Assembly (NCBI GenBank): GCA_035519495.1
Contig: DATIWE010000056.1
Span: forward strand, 18,657 to 82,656
Direction: 5' to 3'
Length of the DNA stretch: 64,000 nucleotides
Source of the DNA: Actinomycetota bacterium
GTDB lineage: Bacteria; Actinomycetota; UBA4738; HRBIN12
Below, piece by piece: positions 12,623 through 64,000 of the stretch. The notes under the pieces are model-generated. The model was not told the origin of the DNA. It was given only the letters and a program-made list of their open reading frames with translations, and made no database searches. Positions within the stretch are counted from its first letter, which is position 1, and each line of letters begins with the position of its first letter. The position numbers were made by a program, and so were the translations under genes.

Positions 12623-12757
12623 CGGCTCGAACGCCCGCCGGGCCCGGCGCCGCGCGTCCCCCGAAGTGATGAGCGCCGGAATCACCCGATGGGCGTATGC
12701 CGCTGCCCGCCATAGGCGGTTAGACCGGGACCGATCCGTCCGACGATGGGAGGCACC

Positions 12758-14320
12758 GTGGAACGGCATGGCTCCGAGACGTACTACGTGATCGGCGAAG
12801 GGCTCCTCGGCGAGAGCGTCGGGGGCCGTGTGCACACGATGGCCGCCGCCTCCGCCGAAGCCGAGCTGGTGCCGCCGTTCCGCTTCTCCCGGATGGGGCC
12901 GAGCGGCGTCAACCGCCAGCTCGGCGACCCGCTCCGCAAGAAGCTCGCGAACCTGATGACCTCGGGCCCCGAGGCGTTCTCGCAGATCCCCTCCGGTTAC
13001 ACGTACCTCGGGCAGTTCGCCGACCACGACCTGACCTTCGACAAGACGAACGTGATGTTCGGCCAGAACGTGCCGCCGGCGCAGCTGCTCGAGGCTCGCT
13101 CCCCCAGCCTCGACCTCGACTCGCTCTACGGCGCCGGCCCGACCGATCCCGGATCGGCGGCCTTCTACGAGGCGGACGGGGTCCACCTCAAGAGCGGCAC
13201 GACCGCCGCGGCCGATGGGATCCCCGCGAAAGCTGGCTTCGACCTGCTCCGCGGGGCGGGCGCGACCGCGAAGGCGAAGCGGACCGCGATCATCCCCGAC
13301 CCGAGGAACGACGAGAACCTCGCGGTCGCGCAGACGCACCTCGCGTTCATCCGCTTCCACAACCGGGTCGTCGACACCCTCCCGAGCTCGACGCCCGTCG
13401 GCCAGCGCTTCGCGAAGGCGCGCAAGATCGTCACGAACCACTACCAATGGATGCTCCGCACGGACTTCCTGCCGCGCATCTGCCAGCCGAGCGTCGTGAA
13501 CGATGTGTTCGCCCACGGGAGGAAGGTCTTCGAGGTGGGCGCGTCGCCGACCGACATCCCCACGATGCCGATCGAGTTCTCCGTGGCCGCCTACCGACTG
13601 GGGCACTCGATGGTCCGCGAGGCGTACAGCTGGAACAAGATCTTCGACGACGGCAGCGGCACGCTCGAACTGCTGTTCACGTTCACGGGGCTGAGCGGCG
13701 ACCTCGGCGGTGGGCTGCGGCTCCCCAGCACGTGGATCGCCGACTTCCGGCGCCTCTACGACTTCAGCGAGGCCGGCCGTGCCGATCTCGTCGTGCCTGC
13801 CGCCCGGTTCAATCGGGCGATGCGCATCGACACGAAGCTCTCGAACCCGCTCAAGCGCGTGCCGGGGTTCCCCGCCGGCGAGAACAACCTGGCGTTCCGC
13901 AACCTGACGCGGGCCCGGATGGTGAAGCTCGCGACCGGCCAGCAGATGGCCACCTTCCTGAAGTCGAAGGGCGTGACGCTCACGCCGCTGACGAAGGCGC
14001 AGATCCGCGACGGCGGCACGAACGGGGTCACGCTCGACGGGCTGACGACCGTGCAGCGGAACAGCCTGCTGAAGGACACGCCGCTGTGGTTCTACATCCT
14101 GCGCGAAGCGGAGCTCGGTCAGGGCAAGCTGCGCGGCGTGGGCGCCCGCATCGTGGCCGAGACGTTCCATCGGGCGATCGAGGGCAGCTCGACCACGTCG
14201 ATCGTGCGCGATCCCACATGGCACCCGACGCTCGGCCCGAACAACACGACGTTCCGCATGGTCGACCTGCTGCTGTTCGCGTTCCAGGGGAAGAAGAGCC
14301 TGCTGGCGCCGCTCGGCTGA
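12758..14320 (+). CDS. haem peroxidase of the peroxidase-cyclooxygenase (animal haem peroxidase) superfamily
   Basis: About 520 aa. Family motifs include GQFADHDLTFD (distal His region), RNDENLAVAQTHLAFIRFHN and the proximal region AYRLGHSMV. A GGGAGG SD precedes the GTG at 12758. An alternative ATG is at 12746. Confidence 0.75.
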   Translation: MERHGSETYYVIGEGLLGESVGGRVHTMAAASAEAELVPPFRFSRMGPSGVNRQLGDPLRKKLANLMTSGPEAFSQIPSGYTYLGQFADHDLTFDKTNVMFGQNVPPAQLLEARSPSLDLDSLYGAGPTDPGSAAFYEADGVHLKSGTTAAADGIPAKAGFDLLRGAGATAKAKRTAIIPDPRNDENLAVAQTHLAFIRFHNRVVDTLPSSTPVGQRFAKARKIVTNHYQWMLRTDFLPRICQPSVVNDVFAHGRKVFEVGASPTDIPTMPIEFSVAAYRLGHSMVREAYSWNKIFDDGSGTLELLFTFTGLSGDLGGGLRLPSTWIADFRRLYDFSEAGRADLVVPAARFNRAMRIDTKLSNPLKRVPGFPAGENNLAFRNLTRARMVKLATGQQMATFLKSKGVTLTPLTKAQIRDGGTNGVTLDGLTTVQRNSLLKDTPLWFYILREAELGQGKLRGVGARIVAETFHRAIEGSSTTSIVRDPTWHPTLGPNNTTFRMVDLLLFAFQGKKSLLAPLG

Positions 14321-51315: not shown

Positions 51316-52734
51316 TCAGCCGGCGATCGCGGCGGCGGCCTCGCGCACGATCGCCGCGCATTCGTCGATCCGGTCCGCGTGCGTGCGGTGCGACACGATG
51401 CACGCGCGGATCCAGTAGTCGTCGCGGATCATCGTGCTGGACAGGAACACGCGCTTCGACGCGTTGATCCGCGTGAGCAGCTGGCGGCTCGCGGCTTCGT
51501 CCCCGCCGCGCATCCGGAACGGGACGACCGTCAGCTGGGGGCGCCAGCCGATCTCGATGTTCGGGTCGTCGGCGAGCGCGGCGTGCAGCCGGTCGGTGAG
51601 GTCGAGCTTCTCGTCCAGCGCCGTCCGGAACGAGTCGACGCCGTGCAGCACCAGCGGGAACCACACGCGGAGGCCGCGCATGTCGCGCGAGAGCTCGGGC
51701 GAGTACTCGTTGTAGTTCGGGAGGTCGCCGGAAGGCGGCATGTCCTGGAGGTACGCGGCGCCCTCGTAGTGGGCGTCGCGCAGCGCCGCGCCGTCGCGGA
51801 CGACGACGCCGCCGGTCCCGTACGGCAGGAACAGCCCCTTGTGCGGATCGAGCGTCACGCTGTCGGCTCGTTCGATGCCGCGGAACCGCTCACGGCCCCG
51901 GTCCGTCAGCTGGAAGAACCCGCCGTAAGCGGCGTCCACGTGGAGCCACAGGCCCTCGTCCCGCGCGACATCGGCAACCGCGTCGAGCGGATCGACGGCG
52001 CCGGTGTTCGTGGTGCCGGCGGCCGGCGAAACGAGGAACGGGCGCAGGCCCGCCGCACGGTCGGCGCGGATCGCGGCGCGCAACGCGTCGGGATCCATCC
52101 GGAGCTCGGCGTCGGTCGGCACGATCCGGAGGTTCCGGCGCGAGAAGCCGGCGATCGTCGCGTTCTTCGTCACGCTCGCGTGCGTCTGGTCGGTGCAGTA
52201 GTACGTGCCGTCGGTGAAGTCCTCCCCCAGCCGCGTGTGCCGGGCCGTGACCATCGCCGCGAGCGTCCCCATCGAGCCGCCCGTCGTCAGCAGCCCCTGC
52301 GACCCCTCCGGGAAGTCGAACAGCGAGCAGAGCCAACGCGTGACGTTCTCCTCCAGCTGCACCATCGCCGGGCTGGGCTGCCACAGGCCGACGTAGCGGT
52401 TGAGGCCCTGCGCCAGGAACTCGGCGAGCGCCGCCGTGTAGAGCCCGCCGCCCGGGATGTACGCCAGGTAGCCGGGCCCGCTGTACTCGTACGTGTGGCT
52501 CGCGGCCTCGATCGCGTCGTCGATCAGACCGCGGACGTCGGGCTCGCCGTGCTCGGGCGGCTCGGCGGCCAGCTTCTGGGCGATCTCCAGCGCCCCCTCG
52601 GTGTTCTCCGCCGGCGCGTCGTCCAACCCCTCGATCCACGTGATCAGGGTCTCCACGACGGCCTGGCCCATCGCACGCATGTCGGCGGCCGAGGGGTCGA
52701 GCGGGTAGCCCGCGCCACCGGGAACGCCGCTCAC
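51316..52734 (-). CDS. pyridoxal-phosphate-dependent group II decarboxylase
   Basis: The PLP-Lys motif is [15 protein letters not shown]. The fold is type I with a length of about 470 aa. Confidence 0.75.
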
Positions 52735-52937
52735 GCCATCTCCTTGGCCACCGAGTCCAGCAGCTCGCTCGAAGCCGCCGCGATCTCCTCGACGGCCCGG
52801 TCGAACGCCTCCCGATGTCGAGCCGACGGTTCGCGGAAGCCGCTGACCTTCCGGACGTACTGGAGGGCGGCCTCGCGGATCTCCTCGGACGGCGCGATCT
52901 GGACCCCTTCACGCAGACGCTTGATGCTCCGGCACAT
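52731..52937 (-). CDS. DUF2277 domain protein
   Basis: MCRSIKRLREG... is the typical DUF2277 N-terminus. It is 68 aa and overlaps the decarboxylase start by 4 nt. Confidence 0.6.
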   Translation of the reverse strand: MCRSIKRLREGVQIAPSEEIREAALQYVRKVSGFREPSARHREAFDRAVEEIAAASSELLDSVAKEMA

Positions 52938-52970
52938 GGCGACCACGCTACCGCGCCGGCGCGCGAGCGG

Positions 52971-55142
52971 TCAGCCTGCCCCGGTCCGCGCGGCCACCCG
53001 TGCTGCAGCCGACACCGCGAGCGCCTCTTCATCGGGGCCCGGACGGGCCCCAGGCTGTGCGAACCGCGCCCGCTCGAACGTCCGCACGACGATCCGGCTC
53101 TCTTCGACGGCCTCCGCGTCGAAGCGCGCGTCCCGTCGCACCGCCTCCAGCACCTCGGCCGGCGTCCGGGCCGGCGAGCGGGCGTGCCCGGCCGCTTCGA
53201 GCACCGTCAGGAGCTCCTCGAACGCGCGGCCGGCGGCGTCGGGCGGCCGCGGCGGGCGGCGGCGGCGCCGACGGCGGAGCAGCTCGACCATCGCGATCCC
53301 GGCGGCCGCCCCCACCGCGAGGACGACCCCGGCGCTCCGGATCGCGTGCGTCGCGGTCACCACGGCGTGCTCGGCCGCGACGGCCGCGCGACGGACCGGC
53401 GCCGGGACGTGCTGGCGCGCCACTCGCTGGATCGCGGCGATCACCTCCTGGCCGACGAAGCTCCCCGCGGTGGTTCCGGCCTCGGGGACCCCGAACGTCG
53501 GGTCGTACGGCAGCCAGCCGGCGTTCGGGTAGTAGACCTCGACCCATGCGTGCGCGTCGGACTGACGCACCTCCCAGTACCCCGTGAGGGGGTTGCGGTC
53601 CCCGGGCCCGTAGCCGGTCACGATGCGCGTGGGGATCCCTTCGGCGCGCAACAGGATCGCCATCGCGCTCGCGATGTGCTCGCAGAAGCCCCGTCGCGTG
53701 TCGAACAGGAAGTGGTCGACGGCGTCCACGCCCGGAGGCTCGCGCGGCACGTTCAGGTCGTAGCGGGTGTTCGCACGGAGCCACGCCTGAACGCGCTCGA
53801 CCGCGTCCTCCTCTCCCGTGGCTCCCGCGGTGATCCGCGCCGCGAGGTCGCGGTCGCGCTGCGGCAGGTCGGCGGGGAGCTCGAGGTACGGCTCGAGGTG
53901 CCGTGTGAGGGGCGGGAGCGGCACGCTGGCGAGCGCCGCCGCCGGGATCCGTGGCACCTGGGAGACCACCGAGTAGACGAGACCCTCGTCCAGGAGGATC
54001 GGCGAACGGATCGACCCGTCGCGATCGTACCGGAGGCCGCCGCTCGGGAAGTACACCGACTCGGCCCGCGCCGCCGCGAACAGCACGTTCGGCTGCGGTT
54101 GCGCGATGTAGAACGTCTGGACGACCTCGTCGGTGAGCGACCTCGCGAGCGGGCCGCCGGGATCGACGTCGGGGATGTCGGCCGCCCCGGTGTCGGGATC
54201 GAGCGACACGTCCTCGAGCCCGGGGGCCGTCGAGGTCCACACCGACCCGTCGAAGCGATCGAAGGCCTCCGCCCGCCACAGCGCCGGCTGGTCGGCGCGG
54301 ACCCGGAACACGACCTGATCCGAGAGACGACCCCGGGCCCGGAGGTCCATCGCCGAGCTGAACCCCGGGTAGCCGAGCGCGCCGAAATCCACGATGCCGT
54401 CGGTGTCGGCTTGCGGCAGGCCGGGGTTCGTCACGTCGCCGTCGGCGGGCGTCGGCGTCCGGTTGCCCAGGGTGAACGGTGGAGTGTGCGTCAGCGTGCT
54501 CGGCAGGCGCGGCATCGCGAGGAACAACAGACCGCCGAGGACGATCGCCGCGAGGCCGGCGCTCCCGGCCGACCGGGCGGCGGCCAGGCGCGGCGGGCGG
54601 CCGGCCGCGATCCGGCGCACCGAGACCGGCGCCGTCATCTCGTCCGGGCGCGGCTGCGCGGACAACCACAGCCATGCGGCGGACAGCGCCGCCCACGCCA
54701 GGAGGATCCCGGCGAAGCCGGTCGTGAGCGACAGCACGGCCGCCGCGGCCACGAGCGTCGTCGAGGACACCATCGAGAACGCGAGGTCGCGCCGTCGCGG
54801 CACATCGAACGCGTGCAACACCTGCACCCACAGGAACAGCGCCGCCAGCGGCATGCGCGCGGCGTCCACCGTCTGGGCGGTGCGCACCGTTCGGACGAAC
54901 AGGTCCATCGCGACGAGCAGCCCGATCACCAGCCCGGCCTTGATCACGAGGTTCGACCGGTACCGGCGGTGGTACGAGAGGAGGTAGCCGGCGGGCGCGA
55001 GGACCAGCGCCGCCGCCGCGGTCGACGGGGCCACGGCGGCGCGGGTCACGACGGCCCAGATGCCGAGCTCCACCGCGAGCGCGACGACGACCCGCATCGC
55101 GATCGAGTCCTCGGGCGGCGGCGCGGGGCGACGGAGGTTCAT
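52971..55142 (-). CDS. transglutaminase-like (TgpA-type) membrane protein
   Basis: The N-terminal polytopic region is DUF3488-like. The transglutaminase core is GFCEHIASAMAILLRAEGIPTRIVTGY ... DAHAWVEVY (Cys-His-Asp). Its ATG overlaps the DUF58 stop (ATGA). Alternative-frame ORFs were rejected. Confidence 0.8.
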   Translation of the reverse strand: MNLRRPAPPPEDSIAMRVVVALAVELGIWAVVTRAAVAPSTAAAALVLAPAGYLLSYHRRYRSNLVIKAGLVIGLLVAMDLFVRTVRTAQTVDAARMPLAALFLWVQVLHAFDVPRRRDLAFSMVSSTTLVAAAAVLSLTTGFAGILLAWAALSAAWLWLSAQPRPDEMTAPVSVRRIAAGRPPRLAAARSAGSAGLAAIVLGGLLFLAMPRLPSTLTHTPPFTLGNRTPTPADGDVTNPGLPQADTDGIVDFGALGYPGFSSAMDLRARGRLSDQVVFRVRADQPALWRAEAFDRFDGSVWTSTAPGLEDVSLDPDTGAADIPDVDPGGPLARSLTDEVVQTFYIAQPQPNVLFAAARAESVYFPSGGLRYDRDGSIRSPILLDEGLVYSVVSQVPRIPAAALASVPLPPLTRHLEPYLELPADLPQRDRDLAARITAGATGEEDAVERVQAWLRANTRYDLNVPREPPGVDAVDHFLFDTRRGFCEHIASAMAILLRAEGIPTRIVTGYGPGDRNPLTGYWEVRQSDAHAWVEVYYPNAGWLPYDPTFGVPEAGTTAGSFVGQEVIAAIQRVARQHVPAPVRRAAVAAEHAVVTATHAIRSAGVVLAVGAAAGIAMVELLRRRRRRRPPRPPDAAGRAFEELLTVLEAAGHARSPARTPAEVLEAVRRDARFDAEAVEESRIVVRTFERARFAQPGARPGPDEEALAVSAAARVAARTGAG

Positions 55143-56317
55143 CGCGCCACCGCCCGCGCCCCGAGGCATGCGGCCAGGTCCTGGTCGACGCGCCAGGGCC
55201 GGATCTCCACGCCCGGGTGCGTCTCCTCGGCGAGGGTGCCCACCACGTCCAGGAGCACCGGCACGAGCACGACGCGCTCCACGACGGCGCTCGCGCGCAC
55301 GGCCGCGTCGAGCACCGGGACCCGGTCGCGGTCCCGCCACGCCGGGAAGGCCACCACGAGGGTCTCGACACCGCGGAACTCCTCGGGCCCGAGCCGGTCG
55401 AGCACGGTGGGGAGCGGCACGCCGCTCGGCCGCAAACGGGCCAGCCACTCCAGCAGCTCCCGCCCGTCGGTCCGCCCCAGGACATCGACGGTCCGGTCCG
55501 GGAGCGCGCCGGCCAGCCGGACGCCGTGCCCGTTCGCGAACGCCGCCTCGACGACGGATGCCGCGACGCAGCAGCACCGATCCAGGGGCGTCCAGGACTC
55601 GCCGAGGTCGCGCTCGGTGTCGATCACGACGGCGAGCCGGCGGGTCCGCTCCTGCTCGAATTCGCGGACCATGACCTCGCCGTGACGGGCCGTCAGGCCC
55701 CAGTGCACGTGGCGCATCGAGTCGCCGGGGCGGTAGCCACGCACGGCCAGGTAGTCCGGCCCCTGCCCGCGCCGGGGCGCCGTATGGATCGCCGGCTCGA
55801 GCGTGCCGACCGGCTCGACGAACGGCAGCCCCGGGAGCGGGAGCACGCGCGGCAATACAAGGGTGCGCGCCTGCACCGGCACGCGCCGGACGCGCTCCGC
55901 GACGCCGAACGGCGCGGCCGACCGCAACGTGATCGAGGCGGTCGCGACCTCGCCGCGACGCGCCGGCGTCCGACGCGTCGTGACGTCGATCCGCTCGTGC
56001 GGTCGCACCGACGGCAGGAACAGTTCGGTCGGCTGGAGGTGTTCGTCGTGCACCCGCACGCCCCAGCGGACGCCGCGACGGCGGTTCTCCAGCTGGAGCT
56101 CGATCGTCGCCTCGCCGCCCTGCGAAGCGTCGGCCGGCGCGTCGAGCGCGGCGTGGAGCCCGCGGAGCGCGGCGAACGGCAACACGAGTCCGGCGGCGAC
56201 CGCGCCGAGCAGCATCGCCGAGATCACGTAGAGCCAGCCCGCCTGCACCATCGTGCCGATCAGGAACAGGACCGCCGCGCCGATCAGGAGGCCGCCGGCG
56301 CGTTTGCGCAACCGCAC
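55139..56317 (-). CDS. DUF58 domain protein (MoxR partner, vWA-like)
   Basis: It has N-terminal TM helices and a DUF58 core, and sits between MoxR and the transglutaminase as in canonical operons. Confidence 0.75.
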   Translation of the reverse strand: MRLRKRAGGLLIGAAVLFLIGTMVQAGWLYVISAMLLGAVAAGLVLPFAALRGLHAALDAPADASQGGEATIELQLENRRRGVRWGVRVHDEHLQPTELFLPSVRPHERIDVTTRRTPARRGEVATASITLRSAAPFGVAERVRRVPVQARTLVLPRVLPLPGLPFVEPVGTLEPAIHTAPRRGQGPDYLAVRGYRPGDSMRHVHWGLTARHGEVMVREFEQERTRRLAVVIDTERDLGESWTPLDRCCCVAASVVEAAFANGHGVRLAGALPDRTVDVLGRTDGRELLEWLARLRPSGVPLPTVLDRLGPEEFRGVETLVVAFPAWRDRDRVPVLDAAVRASAVVERVVLVPVLLDVVGTLAEETHPGVEIRPWRVDQDLAACLGARAVAR

Positions 56318-56321
56318 GGGA

Positions 56322-57293
56322 TCACCCCGTCCGCGCGACCTGCAGCGGCACCGGAGTCTCCTCGAGCAGGCGCCGGATCACGGCGCGGCACGTGTCGCCG
56401 CCCCCGCGAGCCTGCATCGCCAACAACCGATGGGCGATGACGGGCACGGCGAGCGCCTTCACGTCGTCGGGCAGCACGTACTCCCGGCCCTGCGAGAGCG
56501 CTCGCGCCTGGGCGCAGCGCACCAGCCAGACGGACGCACGAGGGGAGGCGCCGAGCGCGATCTCCGGAGCCGCGCGCGTCGCCGTCACCAGGTCGACGGC
56601 GTAGCGGACGACGGCGTCGTCGACGTACACGCTCCGGACGGCGCGCTGCGCTGCGGCGACGTCCGGCGGCGAGAGCACCGCTTCGAGGTCGCGCAGCGGA
56701 TGGCGCTCGAGCTGCCGCCGCACCAGTTCGGTCGAGCCGCGCTGGTCCGGATACCCGACGCGCACCGCGAGGGCGAAACGGTCCAGCTGCCCCTCCGGGA
56801 GCGGATACGTGCCGTGCTGTTCGGTCGGGTTCTCCGTGGCGATCACGAGGTAGGGCTCGGGCAGCGGGTGCGTCACCCCCTCGACCGTGACCTGGCGTTC
56901 CTCCATCGGCTCCAGGAGCGCGGATTGGGTCCGTGGCGTGGTGCGGTTGATCTCGTCGACCAACACGACGTTCGCGAACACCGGCCCGGGGACGAAGCGG
57001 AACTCGCCGTGCGCCTGGTCGTAGACGCTGATGCCGGTGAGGTCCGACGGCAGGAGGTCGGGCGTGGCCTGCACGCGGGAGAACGCGCCGCCGATCGAGA
57101 CCGCGAAGGCGCGGGCCATCGTGGTCTTCCCGACGCCGGGGACCCCTTCCAGCAGCAGGTTCCCGTCCGCGAACAGGCAGATCGCCGCGCATGCGACGGC
57201 GTCGTCGTTGCCGGCGATGACGCGGGCGACGTTGTCGACCAGCCGACGGAACGCCGCGGTCGCCTCGCCGACGGCGGGCGTGGGCTCGATCAC
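56322..57293 (-). CDS. MoxR-family AAA+ ATPase
   Basis: Walker A is GVPGVGKT and Walker B is VVLVDEINR. The length is about 320 aa. Confidence 0.85.
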   Translation of the reverse strand: MIEPTPAVGEATAAFRRLVDNVARVIAGNDDAVACAAICLFADGNLLLEGVPGVGKTTMARAFAVSIGGAFSRVQATPDLLPSDLTGISVYDQAHGEFRFVPGPVFANVVLVDEINRTTPRTQSALLEPMEERQVTVEGVTHPLPEPYLVIATENPTEQHGTYPLPEGQLDRFALAVRVGYPDQRGSTELVRRQLERHPLRDLEAVLSPPDVAAAQRAVRSVYVDDAVVRYAVDLVTATRAAPEIALGASPRASVWLVRCAQARALSQGREYVLPDDVKALAVPVIAHRLLAMQARGGGDTCRAVIRRLLEETPVPLQVARTG

Positions 57294-57336
57294 CCAAGGA
57301 ACTTCGACCCCGGGGCGGGAAGCCTTGAGGCGCCGA

Positions 57337-58173
57337 CTATCCGTCCCGGCGAGCCCGCAGGGAGAACATCAGGGGCAGCGTCCCGCGCTGGCCCTTCGGC
57401 CAGCCGGACCGGCCCTCGCCGAGCGGGGTCAGGAACGGCGCCGGCCAGTCGAGGATCCGCTTCTCGTCCAGGAGCTCGATCCGGAGGCCCTCGCCGGCCA
57501 GGAGCGTCACGATCTCCCCGAGCGAGTGGTTCCAGCCGTGCTCGACCTCCGCGTCCACGTCGGCGTCCGGATCCGCGTAGGACCCCTCGACCGCGAACGA
57601 GAGCGTCTCGCCGCCCCAGTAGTCGTACCCGAGCTCGACCGGGTTCGGCTCGGTGGCGTCGTCGTCGATCGCGTGCAGCACCGGATGCGCCTCATGGATG
57701 TAGAAGATCCCGCCCGGCTTCACGAACCCGGCGACGGCGGCCGCCCAGGGCGCAAGGTCGGGGAGCCACCCGAGCGCGCCGCGCCCCGTGTACACCACGT
57801 CGAACGTCTCGCCCGCCAGAGGCCCCGGCAGGTCGTACACGTCCGAGACCAGGAAACGCGAGCGCTCGGCCAGCCCGACCTCCGCCGCCAGCTCTCGCGC
57901 GAAGGCGATCGCCGGCTCGCTGAAGTCGACGCCGGTGACCTCGCTCGCGCCGAGGCGCGCCCACGACAGGGTGTCCAGGCCGAAATGGCACTGCACGTGG
58001 AGCAGTGTCTTCCCGGTGACGTCGCCGACCTCCTCACGCTCCCACGGCTCGATCCGCACGTCGTCGAGGTCGTCGCGGAAGCGCGCCACGTCGTAGAAGT
58101 CGCCGGCCGTGTGGATCGGGGTCCACGCGTCCCAGAGCCTGCGGTTGTCCGCGATCTCCCGGTCGTGGCTCAT
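57337..58173 (-). CDS. class I SAM-dependent methyltransferase
   Basis: MSHDREIADN... The track ORF extension was rejected. Its stop and start overlap the agmatinase gene by 4 nt. Confidence 0.6.
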   Translation of the reverse strand: MSHDREIADNRRLWDAWTPIHTAGDFYDVARFRDDLDDVRIEPWEREEVGDVTGKTLLHVQCHFGLDTLSWARLGASEVTGVDFSEPAIAFARELAAEVGLAERSRFLVSDVYDLPGPLAGETFDVVYTGRGALGWLPDLAPWAAAVAGFVKPGGIFYIHEAHPVLHAIDDDATEPNPVELGYDYWGGETLSFAVEGSYADPDADVDAEVEHGWNHSLGEIVTLLAGEGLRIELLDEKRILDWPAPFLTPLGEGRSGWPKGQRGTLPLMFSLRARRDG

Positions 58174-59201
58174 GCGCGCTTCGCGGCGAGCGCGCTGATC
58201 GCCTCCATCACCACGCGGTGCGCCAGGAGCGCCGTGATCTCCGCGTGGTCGTACGGCGGTGAGACCTCCACGACGTCCACCCCGACGAGGTCGACGCGCG
58301 TGACGATCTGGCGCACCGCCCGCAGCAGCTCTCGCGAGAGCATCCCGCCGGCTTCGGGCGTGCCCGTCCCCGGCGCCATGCCGGGATCGACGACGTCGAT
58401 GTCCACGGACAGGTAGATGACCTCGGGGCCGTCGAGCGCCTCGTCGATCGCGTCGGCGATCACGGCCTCGCTCCCCCGCTCCTCGATCTCCACCATCGGG
58501 TGCCAGCGCATCCCCTGCTCCCCCATCCAGGCGAGCGTCTCCTGCTCCGGCCAGTACCCGCGCAGGCCGACCTGCACGAAGTTCTTCCCGGCGACCCAGC
58601 CCTCCTCGATCAACCGGCGCATCGGCGTGCCGTGGCCGTAGAGGTTGCCCCACTGATCCTGGCCGGTGTCGGCGTGCGCGTCGAAGTGCACGACGCCGAC
58701 CCGGCGCGGCCACACGGCCCGCGCGACCGCGGCGGCGCTCGGGTACGTGATCGCGTGGTCGCCGCCCAGCACGATCGGGATCGGTCCGGCGCTCGCGACG
58801 CGGAACACCTTCTCGTGGATCACGCGGAGCGCACGCTCGAACCGTGTCGGCACGACCGGCGCGTCGCCCGCGTCGACCACGGTGAGCGCGTCGTACGGCG
58901 CCACGTCCAGCTGGAGGGACCACGCGGTCTCGGGACCCCACACGGTCGGCGCCATCCGGATCGCGCGGGGGCCGAACCGAGCCCCCGGGCGCGCCGACAC
59001 GGCCTCGTCGAACGGCGCCCCGACGATCGCGACGTCGGCGTGCGCGGCCGCCAGCGCGGCGTCGTCGGTCGCCCACGGGAGCCGGTCGAACGACCCGTGC
59101 CAGTCCGCGTAGTAGGGAAGGTCGGCGTTCGAGAACTCCGCGAACTCGTCGTCGGCGCGCAGCTCGCTGTGCTCGAGGCGGAAATCGGGAGCGTCGCTCA
59201 C
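58170..59201 (-). CDS. agmatinase/arginase-family ureohydrolase
   Basis: The Mn-binding motifs are GGDHAITYP, DAHADT and SVDIDVVDP. GARFGPRAIR is typical of agmatinase/guanidino-acid hydrolases. Confidence 0.8.
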   Translation of the reverse strand: MSDAPDFRLEHSELRADDEFAEFSNADLPYYADWHGSFDRLPWATDDAALAAAHADVAIVGAPFDEAVSARPGARFGPRAIRMAPTVWGPETAWSLQLDVAPYDALTVVDAGDAPVVPTRFERALRVIHEKVFRVASAGPIPIVLGGDHAITYPSAAAVARAVWPRRVGVVHFDAHADTGQDQWGNLYGHGTPMRRLIEEGWVAGKNFVQVGLRGYWPEQETLAWMGEQGMRWHPMVEIEERGSEAVIADAIDEALDGPEVIYLSVDIDVVDPGMAPGTGTPEAGGMLSRELLRAVRQIVTRVDLVGVDVVEVSPPYDHAEITALLAHRVVMEAISALAAKRA

Positions 59202-59235
59202 GGCGCGTAGCTTCGCACACGGCCGACCGGCGGGG

Positions 59236-60039
59236 TCACGCCGGCGACGGGAGCCCCTCCACCACGTCGCCGGAGCGGAACGTCTCGCGGCCGTCCGCCG
59301 TGATCACCTCGACCGCGCCGGGACCATAGGCGCGCCAGGTCCCCACGGCGAACACCGCGGCGGTGCGCTCCCCCAGACCGAGCAGGACCGTGTCCTTCTC
59401 CGGCATCGCCCCGATCGCGCCGTCGATCCACGTGCCGCCGAACGCGTCGAGGTGCGGCACGACGGCGATCCGCGGCACCAGGCCGAGAGCCGCGCGGTAC
59501 CGGCGGCGCTCGTCGCCCGGCATGCGGTCGCGGATCAGCGTCCACGCGCCGATGGCCATCGCGCCCGCGGAGGACCCGCCGAGCGCGGCGCCGCCGCGCC
59601 AGGCAGCGACGATCGCCTCCCACACGGGCGTGTCCGCCAGGACGGTCGGCACGATCCCGGGATCGCCGCCCACCAGGTAGAAGAAGTGGCCCTCGCGAGC
59701 CCGCGCGGCGATCTCGGGCGACTTCGCGAGCGACCGCGTCGTGGCCGGGAGCTCTTCGACCTCCAAACCCAGCGCGGCGAACCAGCGCTGCGCGTTGGCG
59801 ACGGCGAGCTCCGGCCGGTGCCGCGCGGCAGCTGTCGCCACGACGTACGCGGGCCCGCCGCCTGCGGCCTCGACCAGCACGCGGTCCTGCGGTTCGTTGC
59901 CGGGGTTCAGCTCGTCGCCGCCGACCAGCGCGAGCGGCCCGGGAGCACTCAGCCTGTGCCGTCCTTCAGGATCTGCCGCGCGGCGTTCGCGCCGGGGCCG
60001 CCGGTGATGCCACCGCCTGGGTGCGCGCCCGAGCCGCAC
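59236..60039 (-). CDS. peptidase S51 (cyanophycinase/dipeptidase E-like). The start is unresolved
   Basis: Family motifs are LALVGGDELNPGNE ... FYLVGGDPG ... LGGSSAGAMA. The only in-frame ATG/GTG starts (60039, 60096) lie inside the upstream CrtI-like gene. The true start may be the CTG at 59952, which overlaps that gene's TGA. Confidence 0.55.
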   Translation of the reverse strand: MRLGRAPRRWHHRRPRRERRAADPEGRHRLSAPGPLALVGGDELNPGNEPQDRVLVEAAGGGPAYVVATAAARHRPELAVANAQRWFAALGLEVEELPATTRSLAKSPEIAARAREGHFFYLVGGDPGIVPTVLADTPVWEAIVAAWRGGAALGGSSAGAMAIGAWTLIRDRMPGDERRRYRAALGLVPRIAVVPHLDAFGGTWIDGAIGAMPEKDTVLLGLGERTAAVFAVGTWRAYGPGAVEVITADGRETFRSGDVVEGLPSPA

Positions 60040-61526
60040 AGGTAGAGCCCGTCGAAGAGGAAGCGGTAGCGCGCCTCCCCCAGCATCGGGCGCCACGCGA
60101 AGAACTGATCGAGCGCCGGCTCCGCGTGCTGGATGTCGCCGCCCGTGAGGGCGAAGCGATCCTCCAGGTCCTCCGGCGTGATCACCTCGCGCGCCTCTAC
60201 GAGCTCACCGAACCCCGGCGCGTACGCCTCGAGCGTCTTGACGGCGATCTCGCCGACGCGGTCGCGCTCGTCCGCCCACGGGCCCTCGCGCAGGTGCCGC
60301 GGCGCCGCCTGGAACACGACGCTCATCACGTGCTTGCCCTCGGGCGCCAGCGATGGATCCGAGAGCGAAGGGATCGTCGCCTCCAGCACCGGCTCTTCGC
60401 TCACGTGCCCGTACTTGACCGCGTCCATCGCGTGCTCGACGGCGTCGATCGACGGCCCGATCACGATCCGGCCGCGGAGCCGCTCCTCATCGCCGCCCGC
60501 GAACGCCGGCAGACCCCCGAGCGCGAAGTTCAGGCGCGCGGTTGCGCCGGGCTGGCGGATGTTCTCGCCGCGCCAGACCGTCGTCGGCCCCACGGCCGCC
60601 GGATCCAGCAGCCGCAGGGTGCGCTTCGGGTCGGCGCCCGACACCACGAGCGGCGCGTCCAGCTCGGTGCCGTCGGCCAGGCCGACGCCGACGGCGCGGT
60701 CGCCGCGCGTGCGGATCGCGACGACCTCGGCCCCGGTTCGGATCGCGACGCCGGCCTGCGTCGCCGACGCCACGAGCGCGTCGGCGAGGGCGTCGGTGCC
60801 GCCCCGGGCGAACACCGCCGTCCCGGCCGCGCCGCCGTCCGTGCCGGCCGAGTCGTTGAGGAACACCTGCGCGGTGCCCGTGGCCCACGCGCCCATCGCC
60901 GTGTACAGCACGCCGCGCGTGGCGAGCGGCCCCCGCACGGCCTCCTCCTCGAACACCTCCTGCACGAGGTCCGCGACCGCCATCGGGAGCGCGCGGATCG
61001 CCTCGCGGCCGGTCCGCGCCCCGAGGTCGCGGAACGCCTTGCCCAACTTGAGCCCCATGATCGCGTCGGCGAGGGACGGCGAGGCGGGGTCGGGGGGGAT
61101 CGCGACCTGCACGTAGGCGAGGAAGCTCGCGATCGCGCGGATCTTCGCGTCGAAGCCGGGGTACGCGTCCGCGTCGTGCGCGCTCCGGGGCCGCAGCTCC
61201 TCGGCCGTGCGGGCGGCGTCGCCCCAGAACGTGACGGAGGAGCCATCGGGCATCGGCGCGTGCAGGCGCACGTCCGGTGCGATCGCCTCGAAGCCGAACC
61301 GGTCGAGCTCCAGGTCCTTCACGACGGATGCGCGCAGGCGTCCGACCGTGTGCACGAGGCCCGGAGCGCGGAACCAGGGCGCCGGCTCGGATCCGCGGAG
61401 GATCCCGCCGCTCCGCTCGGCGCGCTCCAGCACCACGACCTTCTTGCGCGCTTTCGCGAGGTATGCGGCGGCGACGAGGCCGTTGTGGCCGGCGCCGATC
61501 ACGACGGCGTCGATACGCGCCGCCAT
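59949..61526 (-). CDS. phytoene-desaturase (CrtI)-like FAD/NAD(P)-binding oxidoreductase, copy 2
   Basis: MAARIDAVVIGAGHNGLVAAAYLA is the dinucleotide-binding motif. Its ATG overlaps the stop of copy 1 (ATGA). The C-terminus is LCGSGAHPGGG. The 1085-aa track ORF is a frame-fused artefact. Confidence 0.75.
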   Translation of the reverse strand: MAARIDAVVIGAGHNGLVAAAYLAKARKKVVVLERAERSGGILRGSEPAPWFRAPGLVHTVGRLRASVVKDLELDRFGFEAIAPDVRLHAPMPDGSSVTFWGDAARTAEELRPRSAHDADAYPGFDAKIRAIASFLAYVQVAIPPDPASPSLADAIMGLKLGKAFRDLGARTGREAIRALPMAVADLVQEVFEEEAVRGPLATRGVLYTAMGAWATGTAQVFLNDSAGTDGGAAGTAVFARGGTDALADALVASATQAGVAIRTGAEVVAIRTRGDRAVGVGLADGTELDAPLVVSGADPKRTLRLLDPAAVGPTTVWRGENIRQPGATARLNFALGGLPAFAGGDEERLRGRIVIGPSIDAVEHAMDAVKYGHVSEEPVLEATIPSLSDPSLAPEGKHVMSVVFQAAPRHLREGPWADERDRVGEIAVKTLEAYAPGFGELVEAREVITPEDLEDRFALTGGDIQHAEPALDQFFAWRPMLGEARYRFLFDGLYLCGSGAHPGGGITGGPGANAARQILKDGTG

Positions 61527-63127
61527 CAGGCCGCCCGCCGCCCCTTCTTCTTCTCCTTCAGGTACTCGAGCGCCGCGATCCGGCCCGGCGCCCCCATGAT
61601 GCCGCCGCCGGGGTGCGTCGCGGATCCGCACATCCAGAGGTTCGCGACCGGCGTGCGGTAGCGCGACCAGCCCGGAACGGGCCGGTTGAAGAACAGCTGC
61701 TCGAGCGAGAGCTCGCCCTGGAAGATGTTGCCTTCGGTGAGCCCGGTGATGTCCTCGATGTCCTTCGGCGTGATGAACTGCTGGCCGACGATCAGCGAGC
61801 GGATGTTCGGGAACCGTTCCTCGAGCGTGTCGATCACGTTCTGCCCGAACGCCTCGCGCCTCGCGTCGTCCCAGACCGCGCCGTCGGCGAGGTGGTACGG
61901 GGCGTACTGGACGAAGCAGCTCATCACGTGCTTGCCCGGCGGCGCCATCGTCGGATCCACCAGCGTCGGCATGATGATGTCGATGTACGGGCGCGCTGAC
62001 GGACGGCCGTACTTCGCGTCGTCGTACGCGCGCTCGATGTAGTCGATCGACGGGCTGATCGAGATGGCGCCACGGAGCCACTCCCCCGTCCCGGGCTTGC
62101 ACGCCAGCTCCGGCAGGCCGTCGAGCGCGAGGTTCACCTTGCCGGAGGAGCCGCGGTACTTGTACCGGAGCACCTCCTCGCGGAACGACGGCTCGAGCAC
62201 GCCGTCGTCCAGGAGGTGGATGAACGTCTGTCGCGAATCGAGCGAGGACATCACGGCGTCGGCGGCGATCTCCTCGCCCGAGGCGAGGATCACGCCGGTG
62301 GCGCGGGTGCCGTCGGTGCGCACGCGCGCGACGGGGGCCTCGGTGCGGATCGTGACGCCCGCCGCGAGCGCGGCCTCGGCGATCGCGTACGCGATCGCGC
62401 CGGTCCCGCCGCGCGGCACGCCCCACGCGCGGAACGCGCCGTCGATCTCGCCCATGTAGTGGTGGAGCAGGACGTAGGCGGTGCCGGGCGAGCGCGGCCC
62501 CTGGAACGTCCCGATGATCCCGGACGCGCTCATCGTGGCCTTCAGCGGCTCGGTCTCGAACCACTGATCCAGGAAATCGGCCGACGACATCGTCATCAGC
62601 TGGATGAACGTCGTCTGCAGGCGCCGGGGCAGGTCCCGGAACTGCTTCGCGAGCGGCGTGAGCGGCAGCCACTCGAACGGCGAGATCTTGCCCGGATCGG
62701 GCGGCGGGATCGACAGGATCGGCTTGATGAACCTGCCCATCTCGGCCATCAAGGGCCCGTACTCCTCGTAGGCCTCGGCATCGTTCAGGGACCACCGGCG
62801 GAGCTCGCGGACGGTGGTGCCGTGGTCGTTCACGCGCCACAGGTAGTCGTCCTCGAGCGGCGTGATCGTGCCGTCGAGCGGGAGGATCTCCAGCCCGTGC
62901 TTCGGGAGCTCCAGCTCGCGGATGATCTCGGGACGCAGCAACGACACCACGTAGGAGAAGACCGAGAACCGGAACCCCGGCACGATCTCCTCCGTCAGCG
63001 TGGCGCCGCCGAGGATCGGCCGCCGTTCGAGGACGAGGACCGTGAGGCCGGCCTTCGCCAGGTAGGCGGCGTTCACGAGGCCGTTGTGCCCGCCTCCGAC
63101 CACGATCACGTCGTACCGCTCGGCCAT
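61526..63127 (-). CDS. phytoene-desaturase (CrtI)-like FAD/NAD(P)-binding oxidoreductase, copy 1
   Basis: MAERYDVIVVGGGHNGLVNAAYLA is the N-terminus and the C-terminus is MCGSATHPGGG. A GGAGGGAAGG SD precedes the ATG. Confidence 0.8.
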   Translation of the reverse strand: MAERYDVIVVGGGHNGLVNAAYLAKAGLTVLVLERRPILGGATLTEEIVPGFRFSVFSYVVSLLRPEIIRELELPKHGLEILPLDGTITPLEDDYLWRVNDHGTTVRELRRWSLNDAEAYEEYGPLMAEMGRFIKPILSIPPPDPGKISPFEWLPLTPLAKQFRDLPRRLQTTFIQLMTMSSADFLDQWFETEPLKATMSASGIIGTFQGPRSPGTAYVLLHHYMGEIDGAFRAWGVPRGGTGAIAYAIAEAALAAGVTIRTEAPVARVRTDGTRATGVILASGEEIAADAVMSSLDSRQTFIHLLDDGVLEPSFREEVLRYKYRGSSGKVNLALDGLPELACKPGTGEWLRGAISISPSIDYIERAYDDAKYGRPSARPYIDIIMPTLVDPTMAPPGKHVMSCFVQYAPYHLADGAVWDDARREAFGQNVIDTLEERFPNIRSLIVGQQFITPKDIEDITGLTEGNIFQGELSLEQLFFNRPVPGWSRYRTPVANLWMCGSATHPGGGIMGAPGRIAALEYLKEKKKGRRAA

Positions 63128-63273
63128 GCCCGCCTTCCCTCCGCCGGAACCGTTCGGGCATGCTAGCCGTGGCCCCGAGGGCCAGCCAACGTGCCCTTGA
63201 CCTCAAGTCAATCGCCCCGGGACGGCCACCAGCGGCCTGCCGTAGGCTCCGCCGGAACGAAGGAGGAGCTTCC

Positions 63274-64000
63274 GTGTCGATCGGGACCGCGTTCTACCCG
63301 CGCCAGCAGGAGCTGAACCGCAAGCACGTCTGGGGCGAGTGGTCCGGCTACCTCTCCGCGCAGGTCTACGCCGACTTCCACGACATCGAGTACGCCGCGA
63401 TCCGCGAGGCGGCGGCGGTGATCGACACCAGCCCGCTCTACAAGTACCGGGTCCACGGGCCCGACGCTGGCCGGCTCCTCGACCGGATCGCGACCCGCAA
63501 CATCGCCTCCCTGAAGGTCGACCAGGTCCTGTACACGCCCTGGTGCGACGAGGACGGCAAGGTCCTCGACGACGGCACCGTGACGAGGCTCGGCGAGGAC
63601 GAGTACCGGGTCACCGCCGCCGACCCCTGCCACCGCTGGTTCCTGCTGAACGCCACGGGCCTGGACGTCGCGGTCGAGGACATCAGCGAGGCGCTCGGCG
63701 CGCTCGCGCTCCAGGGCAAGCTCAGCCGAGAGGTGCTCGAGGCCGCGACCGGCGAGGACTGGACCGGCGTCGGGTACTTCCGGCATCGCCGGACGGAGAT
63801 CGCCGGCGCCGACGTGAGCGTCACGCGGACGGGCTACACGGGCGACCGCGGCTACGAGCTGTGGATCCCGGCCGATGCGGCCCTGGTCGTGTGGGACGCC
63901 GTCTTCGCCGCCGGCCAGCCCTACGGCATCCACCCGGTGGGGATCCGCGCGATGGACGTCGCCCGGGTCGAGGCCGGCCTGATCCTGATCGAGGCCGAGT
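63274..64000 (+). CDS. glycine-cleavage T-protein (GcvT) family aminomethyltransferase, 3' truncated at window edge
   Basis: AGGAGG sits 7 nt before the GTG at 63274. My own translation reads VSIGTAFYPRQQELNRKHVWGEW ... AVIDTSPLYKYRVHGPDAG ... TRTGYTGDRGYELW, the GcvT folate-binding fold. It is absent from the ORF track because there is no stop inside the window. Confidence 0.7.
   Translation, partial: MSIGTAFYPRQQELNRKHVWGEWSGYLSAQVYADFHDIEYAAIREAAAVIDTSPLYKYRVHGPDAGRLLDRIATRNIASLKVDQVLYTPWCDEDGKVLDDGTVTRLGEDEYRVTAADPCHRWFLLNATGLDVAVEDISEALGALALQGKLSREVLEAATGEDWTGVGYFRHRRTEIAGADVSVTRTGYTGDRGYELWIPADAALVVWDAVFAAGQPYGIHPVGIRAMDVARVEAGLILIEAE

Follow-up and report, generated by a model that had tools for sequence, protein, structure and literature searches.

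What would two CrtI-like flavoproteins, encoded back to back and facing a folate-binding protein, do for the cell that carries them? The question is raised by one end of a 64,000-nucleotide (nt) stretch of DNA from an Actinomycetota bacterium (GenBank assembly GCA_035519495.1, contig DATIWE010000056.1, positions 18,657 to 82,656), which we call the window and whose GC content is 70–77%. Two genes for flavin adenine dinucleotide (FAD) proteins, A and B, lie there opposite a gene for a GcvT-family, tetrahydrofolate (THF)-binding, aminomethyltransferase-like protein (Table 1). We put the probability at roughly 0.6 that the three genes form one unit encoding a THF-coupled oxidative demethylase of a small N-methylated amine or amino acid. 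In its best-supported form, this reading has the CrtI-family pair replace the DAO-family flavoprotein of dimethylglycine oxidase (DMGO), dimethylglycine dehydrogenase (DMGDH) and sarcosine oxidase (SOX), with the folate domain provided as a separate protein. A preliminary description of this DNA had likewise proposed a module for amine oxidation or demethylation, not for carotenoid synthesis, and that proposal is supported by synteny, sox-like genes, purU, Rieske and aminotransferase neighbours, and a shared palindrome.

The A–B–GcvT triad and its conservation

The open reading frames (ORFs) and the similarity of their products agree with the preliminary account of two CrtI-type FAD paralogues of 533 and 525 amino acids (aa): A and B are 39% identical over 511 residues (E 6e-102). 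As described, both carry an N-terminal GxGxxG motif at residues 11–16, which reads GGGHNG in A and GAGHNG in B. The C-terminal GSGxHPGGG motif ascribed to both is exact in B (GSGAHPGGG) and only approximate in A (GSATHPGGG). Alignments show that the GxGxxG and HPG-type motifs of both proteins are kept in their orthologues. A 1085-aa ORF (59949..63206, minus strand) had been called spurious, and we concur. It consists of B as its 3' part and a stop-free passage through A; the upstream half is spurious because the B frame stays open across gene A, out of frame. The 4-nt ATGA overlap reported for the A/B junction did not hold up, as the minus strand reads GCC TGA TGG, that is, TGATG with one shared base. 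Translational coupling of A and B nonetheless remains plausible with such a junction. In 36 of the 52 loci of relatives where the spacing could be measured, the inferred start of B lies −4 to +5 nt from the stop of A.

The window ends within the GcvT-like gene, which begins across an intergenic gap of 146 nt, as had been stated. The fragment inside the window already matches Pfam GCV_T (PF01571) at 201.9 bits. We obtained the full-length protein of 397 aa from locus L001, which covers the same 100-kb metagenome contig (ENA ERZ27256589 k141_2937559) in the opposite orientation and reaches beyond the window end; the protein contains both PF01571 and PF08669. Its closest solved relative is the C-terminal THF domain of trimethylamine N-oxide (TMAO) demethylase, Tdm (9q5a; E 2.8e-46, residues 5–396 against 411–784), followed by T-proteins, DMGO and SoxA. 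The THF domains of DMGO and DMGDH align over its full length (E 6e-26 to 3e-23), and its DD and RTGYTG segments have aligned counterparts in T-proteins and Tdm. It scores 133.4 bits against the GcvT equivalog TIGR00528 (cut-off 235.85) and 261.9 bits over positions 387–760 of the Tdm profile NF053776 (cut-off 1100), reaching neither cut-off. Pfam annotation of the called genes revealed no gcvH or gcvP in the window or in L001.

We examined the conservation of the triad in a one-genome-per-species scan that returned more than 550 relatives; synteny was counted in the best 80, which are 66–95% identical to A. The titles of their metagenome-assembled genomes (MAGs) point to Actinomycetota (with Gaiellaceae among them), Acidobacteriota and Chloroflexota (Limnocylindria), plus a single MAG that carries the label Chlamydiota. 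The gene immediately after A encodes a B-type paralogue in 76 of these 80 genomes. In 69 loci a GcvT orthologue, nearly always divergent, is found no more than 10 kb from A; the distance is at most 2 kb in 61 of them and at most 400 nt in 40. Where the orthologue is missing (11 loci), less than 3 kb of DNA is available upstream in 5 cases. When all ORFs of these loci were clustered all against all, A/B and GcvT were the only families kept across phyla.

More distant relatives bring the genes closer together. On four alphaproteobacterial plasmids, from Shinella zoogloeoides ATCC 19623, Rhizobium sp. SL42, Fuscovulum ytuae and Parasedimentitalea marina, A, B and GcvT follow one another in the same direction and overlap or lie at most 12 nt apart; their A proteins are 47–51% identical to that of the window. 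A proteobacterial metagenome contig carries purU-A-B-gcvT with all genes overlapping and an AraC-family gene divergent in front. Within the triad operon, purU is found in L095 and L096, and PurU scores 351.9 bits against an equivalog cut-off of 285.95. Chance co-localisation of the aminomethyltransferase in relatives, an explanation the preliminary description had raised, is thus refuted by the 69 loci and by the overlapping operon of Alpha- and Gammaproteobacteria. In all, bacteria of soil and sea from at least five phyla or classes keep the three genes together.

The two flavoproteins evolve at different rates. The alignments have 529 columns for A and 527 for B, of which 210 and 83, respectively, are conserved at 95% or more, making A the strongly conserved and B the faster-evolving partner. 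The A orthogroup of three phyla forms a single cluster at 50% identity. In a neighbour-joining tree of A-, B- and C-type proteins (C being a third paralogue, described below), built with neither bootstrap nor outgroup, A and B form separate clades and C falls among singleton homologues. Because the A and B clades hold the same lineages, the duplication must be old, with the pair inherited or transferred as a unit. In the same tree, A, B and GcvT of the Chlamydiota-labelled MAG (L050) nest within Acidobacteriota, which suggests a binning error or recent transfer.

Family placement, proposed chemistry and alternatives

A and B are CrtI-clade members of the amine-oxidase/CrtI superfamily and, judged from profile scores below all cut-offs, lie outside every curated carotenoid family. 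Their best NCBIfam match is the equivalog CrtO NF045689, at 287.7 bits for A and 214.7 for B, a match that is distant yet full-length and does not reach the cut-off of 1000. The crtI_fam model TIGR02734 gives 112.5 and 104.2 bits, short of its curated cut-off of 238.1. Pfam Amino_oxidase (PF01593) is matched at 53.4 and 45.0 bits, above the gathering threshold of 19.8, and the match to DAO (PF01266) is limited to the FAD-binding start of about 40 residues. By sequence, the nearest solved structure is CrtI (4dgk; E 4e-17 for A, 1e-15 for B). We also modelled A with AlphaFold2 on the basis of a shallow alignment; the model (pLDDT 66, pTM 0.70) served to rank folds only. A Foldseek search with it placed the carotenoid desaturases 4rep (E 7e-19) and 4dgk on top, with the nicotine oxidoreductase NicA2, monoamine oxidase (MAO), spermine oxidase and putrescine oxidase close behind at TM-scores of about 0.52–0.60.

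A link to amine catabolism emerges from the DNA beyond the window end. Moving outward, the remainder of the GcvT-like gene is followed by a gene for a 638-aa protein and by a five-gene operon (L001:536-6608, 3–9 kb past the window end) whose successive genes overlap by 4–8 nt. The operon encodes, in order, paralogue C, a SoxD-like protein, a SoxA-like protein, a 149-aa protein and a SoxB-like protein. Paralogue C is a CrtO-like protein of 540 aa that is 43% identical to A; such a gene at the head of a sox-type operon is unusual. Also unusual is the N-terminal 2Fe-2S Fer2_4 domain of the 858-aa SoxA-like protein, which accompanies its GCV_T domains. The 149-aa protein has no family match and occupies the slot expected for SoxG. 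Since C is translationally coupled with the sox-like genes, CrtO-like flavoproteins are tied to GcvT-type folate domains twice on this contig. The 638-aa protein (L001:6704-8620) belongs to the alkaline phosphatase superfamily (PF01663, with weak similarity to PafA) and is kept in the closest actinobacterial relatives.

The genes around the triad in other lineages are catabolic as well. On the alphaproteobacterial plasmids, the neighbours are a TetR gene, a PotD-like ABC transporter, an omega-aminotransferase and one or two GbcA-like Rieske oxygenases (128–151 bits, short of the cut-off of 670). A flavoenzyme of the size of DgcA/StcD accompanies them on two of the four plasmids, and the Shinella copy matches models of old yellow enzyme (OYE)/Fe-S flavoenzymes. 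A GbcA-like Rieske oxygenase adjoins the triad in 15 loci of Acidobacteriota, where APC permeases and a pyrroline-5-carboxylate (P5C) dehydrogenase also occur. The Chloroflexota have either a group-II pyridoxal phosphate (PLP) decarboxylase or a protein of 986 aa with a class-III aminotransferase domain at its C-terminal end and an N-terminal half that resembles kinases, a resemblance judged by eye only. The pattern common to these neighbourhoods would be that a quaternary or tertiary amine loses its methyl groups one by one until a primary amine is left for PLP enzymes.

We propose the following mechanism. The FAD of A would take a hydride off an N-methyl group to leave an iminium ion, and the GcvT-like protein would pass the one-carbon unit to THF, yielding 5,10-methylene-THF and the demethylated amine; this second step is modelled on DMGO, heterotetrameric sarcosine oxidase and TMAO demethylase. 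Electrons from the flavin may go to O2, a quinone or electron-transferring flavoprotein (ETF). B would be either an obligatory partner in an A:B heterodimer or the catalyst of a second, consecutive demethylation. Conservation asymmetry and translational coupling lead us to favour a catalytic A with an auxiliary B. Methylene-THF would then be oxidised and released as formate, with PurU recycling THF, or be assimilated. The substrate may be a secondary or tertiary methylamine that arises downstream of a quaternary-amine demethylase of the Rieske type, for example a dimethylglycine- or sarcosine-like compound, an N-methyl omega-amino acid, an N-methylated ethanolamine or polyamine, or N-methylproline.

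Other readings of the same genes have to be weighed. A and B could be independent enzymes that carry out consecutive demethylations, from tertiary to secondary to primary amine, and share one THF partner. Both have intact FAD-binding motifs, tandem CrtI-family paralogues acting in sequence are common in carotenoid clusters, and the neighbourhoods suggest stepwise demethylation to a primary amine followed by transamination. We still consider this arrangement unlikely, given that gene overlaps of 1 and 4 nt and near-universal co-occurrence fit a stoichiometric complex too, and that 210 conserved columns against 83 are more typical of a catalytic and an auxiliary subunit. Less probable again is a non-oxidative route, in which a GcvT-like protein resembling DmdA or LigM would transfer a methyl group from an S-, O- or quaternary-N substrate to form 5-methyl-THF, leaving A and B to perform CrtI-type C–C oxidation or desaturation. 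The GcvT family does include such methyltransferases (DmdA, LigM and DesA score 137, 73 and 79 bits against our protein), and PurU and THF-recycling genes would fit that chemistry too. Known CrtI-family chemistry is C–C desaturation and ketolation, with CrtO the best NCBIfam match and carotenoid desaturases leading the fold search. However, the GcvT-like protein scores much higher for Tdm (262 bits) and T-protein (185 bits), with SoxA-type proteins at 132 bits, than for DmdA or LigM. The recurrent neighbours are amine-specific, comprising GbcA-like Rieske N-demethylases, omega-aminotransferases and sox-like genes, and the tight translational coupling of all three genes points to a complex in which a reactive intermediate is channelled.

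That A and B are true carotenoid or isoprenoid desaturases or ketolases, with the GcvT gene an unrelated neighbour, seems highly improbable to us. The source annotation "phytoene dehydrogenase-like protein", the best profile (CrtO) and the best structures (CrtI and CrtD) speak for it, but all curated cut-offs are missed by far, and the linkage to GcvT is kept across phyla and becomes operonic. A carotenoid locus is also largely refuted by gene content. The preliminary description had pointed to crtB and crtE as the genes to look for, and phytoene synthase (PF00494), polyprenyl synthase (PF00348) and lycopene cyclase are all missing from the 64 kb of the window and from the 9 kb that follow, about 73 kb in all (Pfam annotation of called genes throughout; hmmscan of the first 11 kb).

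Several observations weigh against a THF-coupled oxidative demethylase. Sequence places A and B on the carotenoid-desaturase, CrtO-like side of the superfamily, and to our knowledge the characterised enzymes on that side oxidise lipid C–C bonds, not C–N bonds. Residues 85–234 of the A model, the presumed substrate domain, have pLDDT values below 50. In the window we found neither purU nor folD, nor any electron-transfer partner. No single substrate emerges, because the lineage-specific neighbours vary widely, with agmatinase and S51 peptidase here and Rieske oxygenases elsewhere. Some homologues of about 46% identity are singletons with neither B nor GcvT. A search for fusions among the 150 best representatives revealed none of A with GcvT or with B. 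The only fusion seen, which we count in favour of the demethylase, joins an N-terminal glutathione-dependent formaldehyde-activating (GFA, PF04828) domain to a CrtO-like flavoprotein that is 39% identical to A (P0197, 816 aa; L092:1437-3887). It is, however, a single case on a eukaryote-looking contig, with VMP1, RTC and CDP-alcohol phosphatidyltransferase neighbours, and the protein groups with the third paralogue and the singletons, outside the A clade.

Promoter region and flanking genes

The intergenic region between A and the GcvT-like gene contains a palindrome, TGACCTCAAGTCA (TGAC-N5-GTCA), that is a candidate site for a dimeric regulator and is flanked on either side by −10-like hexamers (Table 1). 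It is invariant in eight actinobacterial intergenic regions, where mean column identity is 51%. At the gene A hexamer, a CTAGCATG block is kept in seven of these eight aligned relatives, and the eighth has TACGAT. In L001 and L006, a second copy of the palindrome (L001:6677-6689) is situated 33 nt upstream of TACGAT before the sox-like operon headed by C. L001 contains three matches to the palindrome compared with 0.24 expected, a number reached in none of 100 shuffles. The palindrome also stands upstream of A in nine Acidobacteriota loci (L037, L039, L047, L048, L055, L060, L080, L083 and L085). This distribution looks like one dimeric regulator governing both divergent promoters and the sox-like operon; no gene for such a regulator was identified nearby. 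A sigma-70 consensus scan returned no promoter, and none was expected because the organism is GC-rich. For riboswitches and other RNAs, Rfam gave no match at E ≤1 over positions 55000–64000.

An exact 12-nt direct repeat, CTCCGCCGGAAC, occurs near both ends of the intergenic region (63139–63150 and 63247–63258). One copy overlaps the ribosome-binding region of A, and the other sits just upstream of that of the GcvT-like gene. We rejected it as a functional element: it is not conserved in the eight-relative alignment and is probably due to chance or related to ribosome binding.

Table 1. Positions of the triad, its intergenic elements and the adjoining genes in the window
Feature	Position	Strand	Remarks
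GcvT-family THF-binding aminomethyltransferase-like gene, 5' part (242/397 codons)	63274..64000	+	start GTG 63274 behind GAAGGAGG; runs past window end
Divergent promoter region between A and GcvT-like gene, 146 nt	63128..63273	.	intergenic
−10-like hexamer TAGGCT, GcvT-like gene	63243..63248	+	32 nt from palindrome, other side; putative promoter element
Palindrome (TGAC-N5-GTCA), candidate dimeric-regulator site	63198..63210	.	conservation
−10-like hexamer TAGCAT, gene A	63160..63165	-	32 nt from palindrome; putative promoter element
Gene A, CrtI/CrtO-like FAD protein, 533 aa	61526..63127	-	ORF listing
A/B stop/start junction TGATG	61524..61528	-	stop TGA 61528–61526, start ATG 61526–61524, 1 shared base
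Gene B, paralogous CrtI/CrtO-like FAD protein, 525 aa	59949..61526	-	start MAARIDAVVIGAGHNG
Peptidase S51 family, 214 aa	59236..59880	-	68 nt downstream of B; only in closest relatives
Arginase-family (agmatinase-like), 343 aa	58170..59201	-	TIGR01230 190.7 bits, cut-off 174.3
Class I S-adenosylmethionine (SAM)-dependent methyltransferase, 278 aa	57337..58173	-	start overlaps arginase-family stop by 4 nt

Downstream of B, the arginase-family neighbour recurs in 6 of the 80 loci, all of them Actinomycetota, and a PLP decarboxylase lies farther off in the clade of the window. Directly downstream of the methyltransferase, a row of genes on the minus strand (51900–57300) encodes a MoxR AAA ATPase, a DUF58 protein and a TgpA-like transglutaminase, a standard trio that is probably unrelated to the triad. 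Elsewhere in the window, a plus-strand gene (12746–14320; ORF span 524 aa) encodes a 520-aa product; its domain of the animal haem peroxidase type (PF03098) is uncommon among bacteria, and a flavodoxin-like gene adjoins the gene.

Significance and comparison with known systems

Soil and sea are rich in methylated amines such as betaines, choline derivatives, sarcosine and methylated polyamines, which serve as osmolytes and as sources of carbon and nitrogen. The demethylating enzymes set who can use these compounds and how one-carbon units enter folate metabolism. A search of the full-text literature, with subscription-only papers outside its reach, found no published description of the triad; the nearest candidates deal with Tdm and with other gene clusters. 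Tentatively, the CrtI-family A:B pair and its stand-alone GcvT-like protein may constitute an unrecognised class of THF-coupled amine demethylases in several phyla, a third flavoprotein scaffold beside the DAO-fused enzymes and heterotetrameric SOX. In uncultured Acidobacteriota, Actinomycetota and Chloroflexota of soil, a major part of the turnover of methylated amines might run through it, and it would be the first CrtI/CrtO-clade enzyme shown to act on a small polar nitrogen compound. If so, a widespread and strongly conserved module, whose A protein is 66–70% identical between phyla, would gain a function, and catalysis in the CrtI clade would widen from lipid C–C to amine C–N bonds. Databases label A/B-type proteins "phytoene dehydrogenase-like" or "NAD(P)/FAD-dependent oxidoreductase", and because these labels are generic, metagenome surveys could misread the pair as carotenoid genes or overlook it. 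Shinella zoogloeoides ATCC 19623, Fuscovulum ytuae and Parasedimentitalea marina are cultured, tractable carriers that make the hypothesis directly testable.

Given its family placement, the triad invites comparison with the carotenoid enzymes. A and B share with CrtI, CrtD and CrtO the N-terminal FAD motif, the C-terminal HPGGG-type motif and their best sequence and fold matches. They differ in scoring below the family cut-offs and in a context free of carotenoid genes, and we know of no carotenoid enzyme with an obligatory folate-enzyme partner. With flavin amine oxidases (MAO, NicA2, and the putrescine and spermine oxidases), A and B have the superfamily and PF01593 in common, and C–N oxidation by those enzymes is the chemistry proposed here. 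Their sequence similarity to A and B is, however, limited to the FAD-binding N-terminus, and they are monomers or homo-oligomers that operate without THF.

Folate-dependent systems resemble the triad in other respects. Tdm, composed of DUF1989 and GcvT domains, captures one carbon from an N-methyl compound, as we propose for the GcvT-like protein, but it is not a flavoenzyme, and its N-terminal DUF1989 is missing from our protein. Heterotetrameric sarcosine oxidase and N-methylglutamate dehydrogenase (SoxBDAG/MgdABCD) are multi-subunit, translationally coupled and equipped with a GcvT-like THF site. A sox-like operon on the same contig, led by the third CrtO-like paralogue and having the TGAC-N5-GTCA site in common, links them to the triad, which itself lacks SoxB (DAO), SoxD and SoxG and has CrtI-family flavin subunits. 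DMGO, DMGDH, sarcosine dehydrogenase and 4-methylaminobutyrate oxidase likewise combine a flavoprotein with a GcvT-type folate domain, and their methyl carbon leaves as 5,10-methylene-THF. Their flavoprotein is of the DAO type (PF01266), whereas that of the triad is CrtI/CrtO-like within PF01593, and the triad has two paralogous flavoproteins and a THF protein that is a separate polypeptide. The genetic coupling of a GcvT-like protein and a flavoprotein that we met in the triad is what it shares with the THF-linked N-demethylases as a class.

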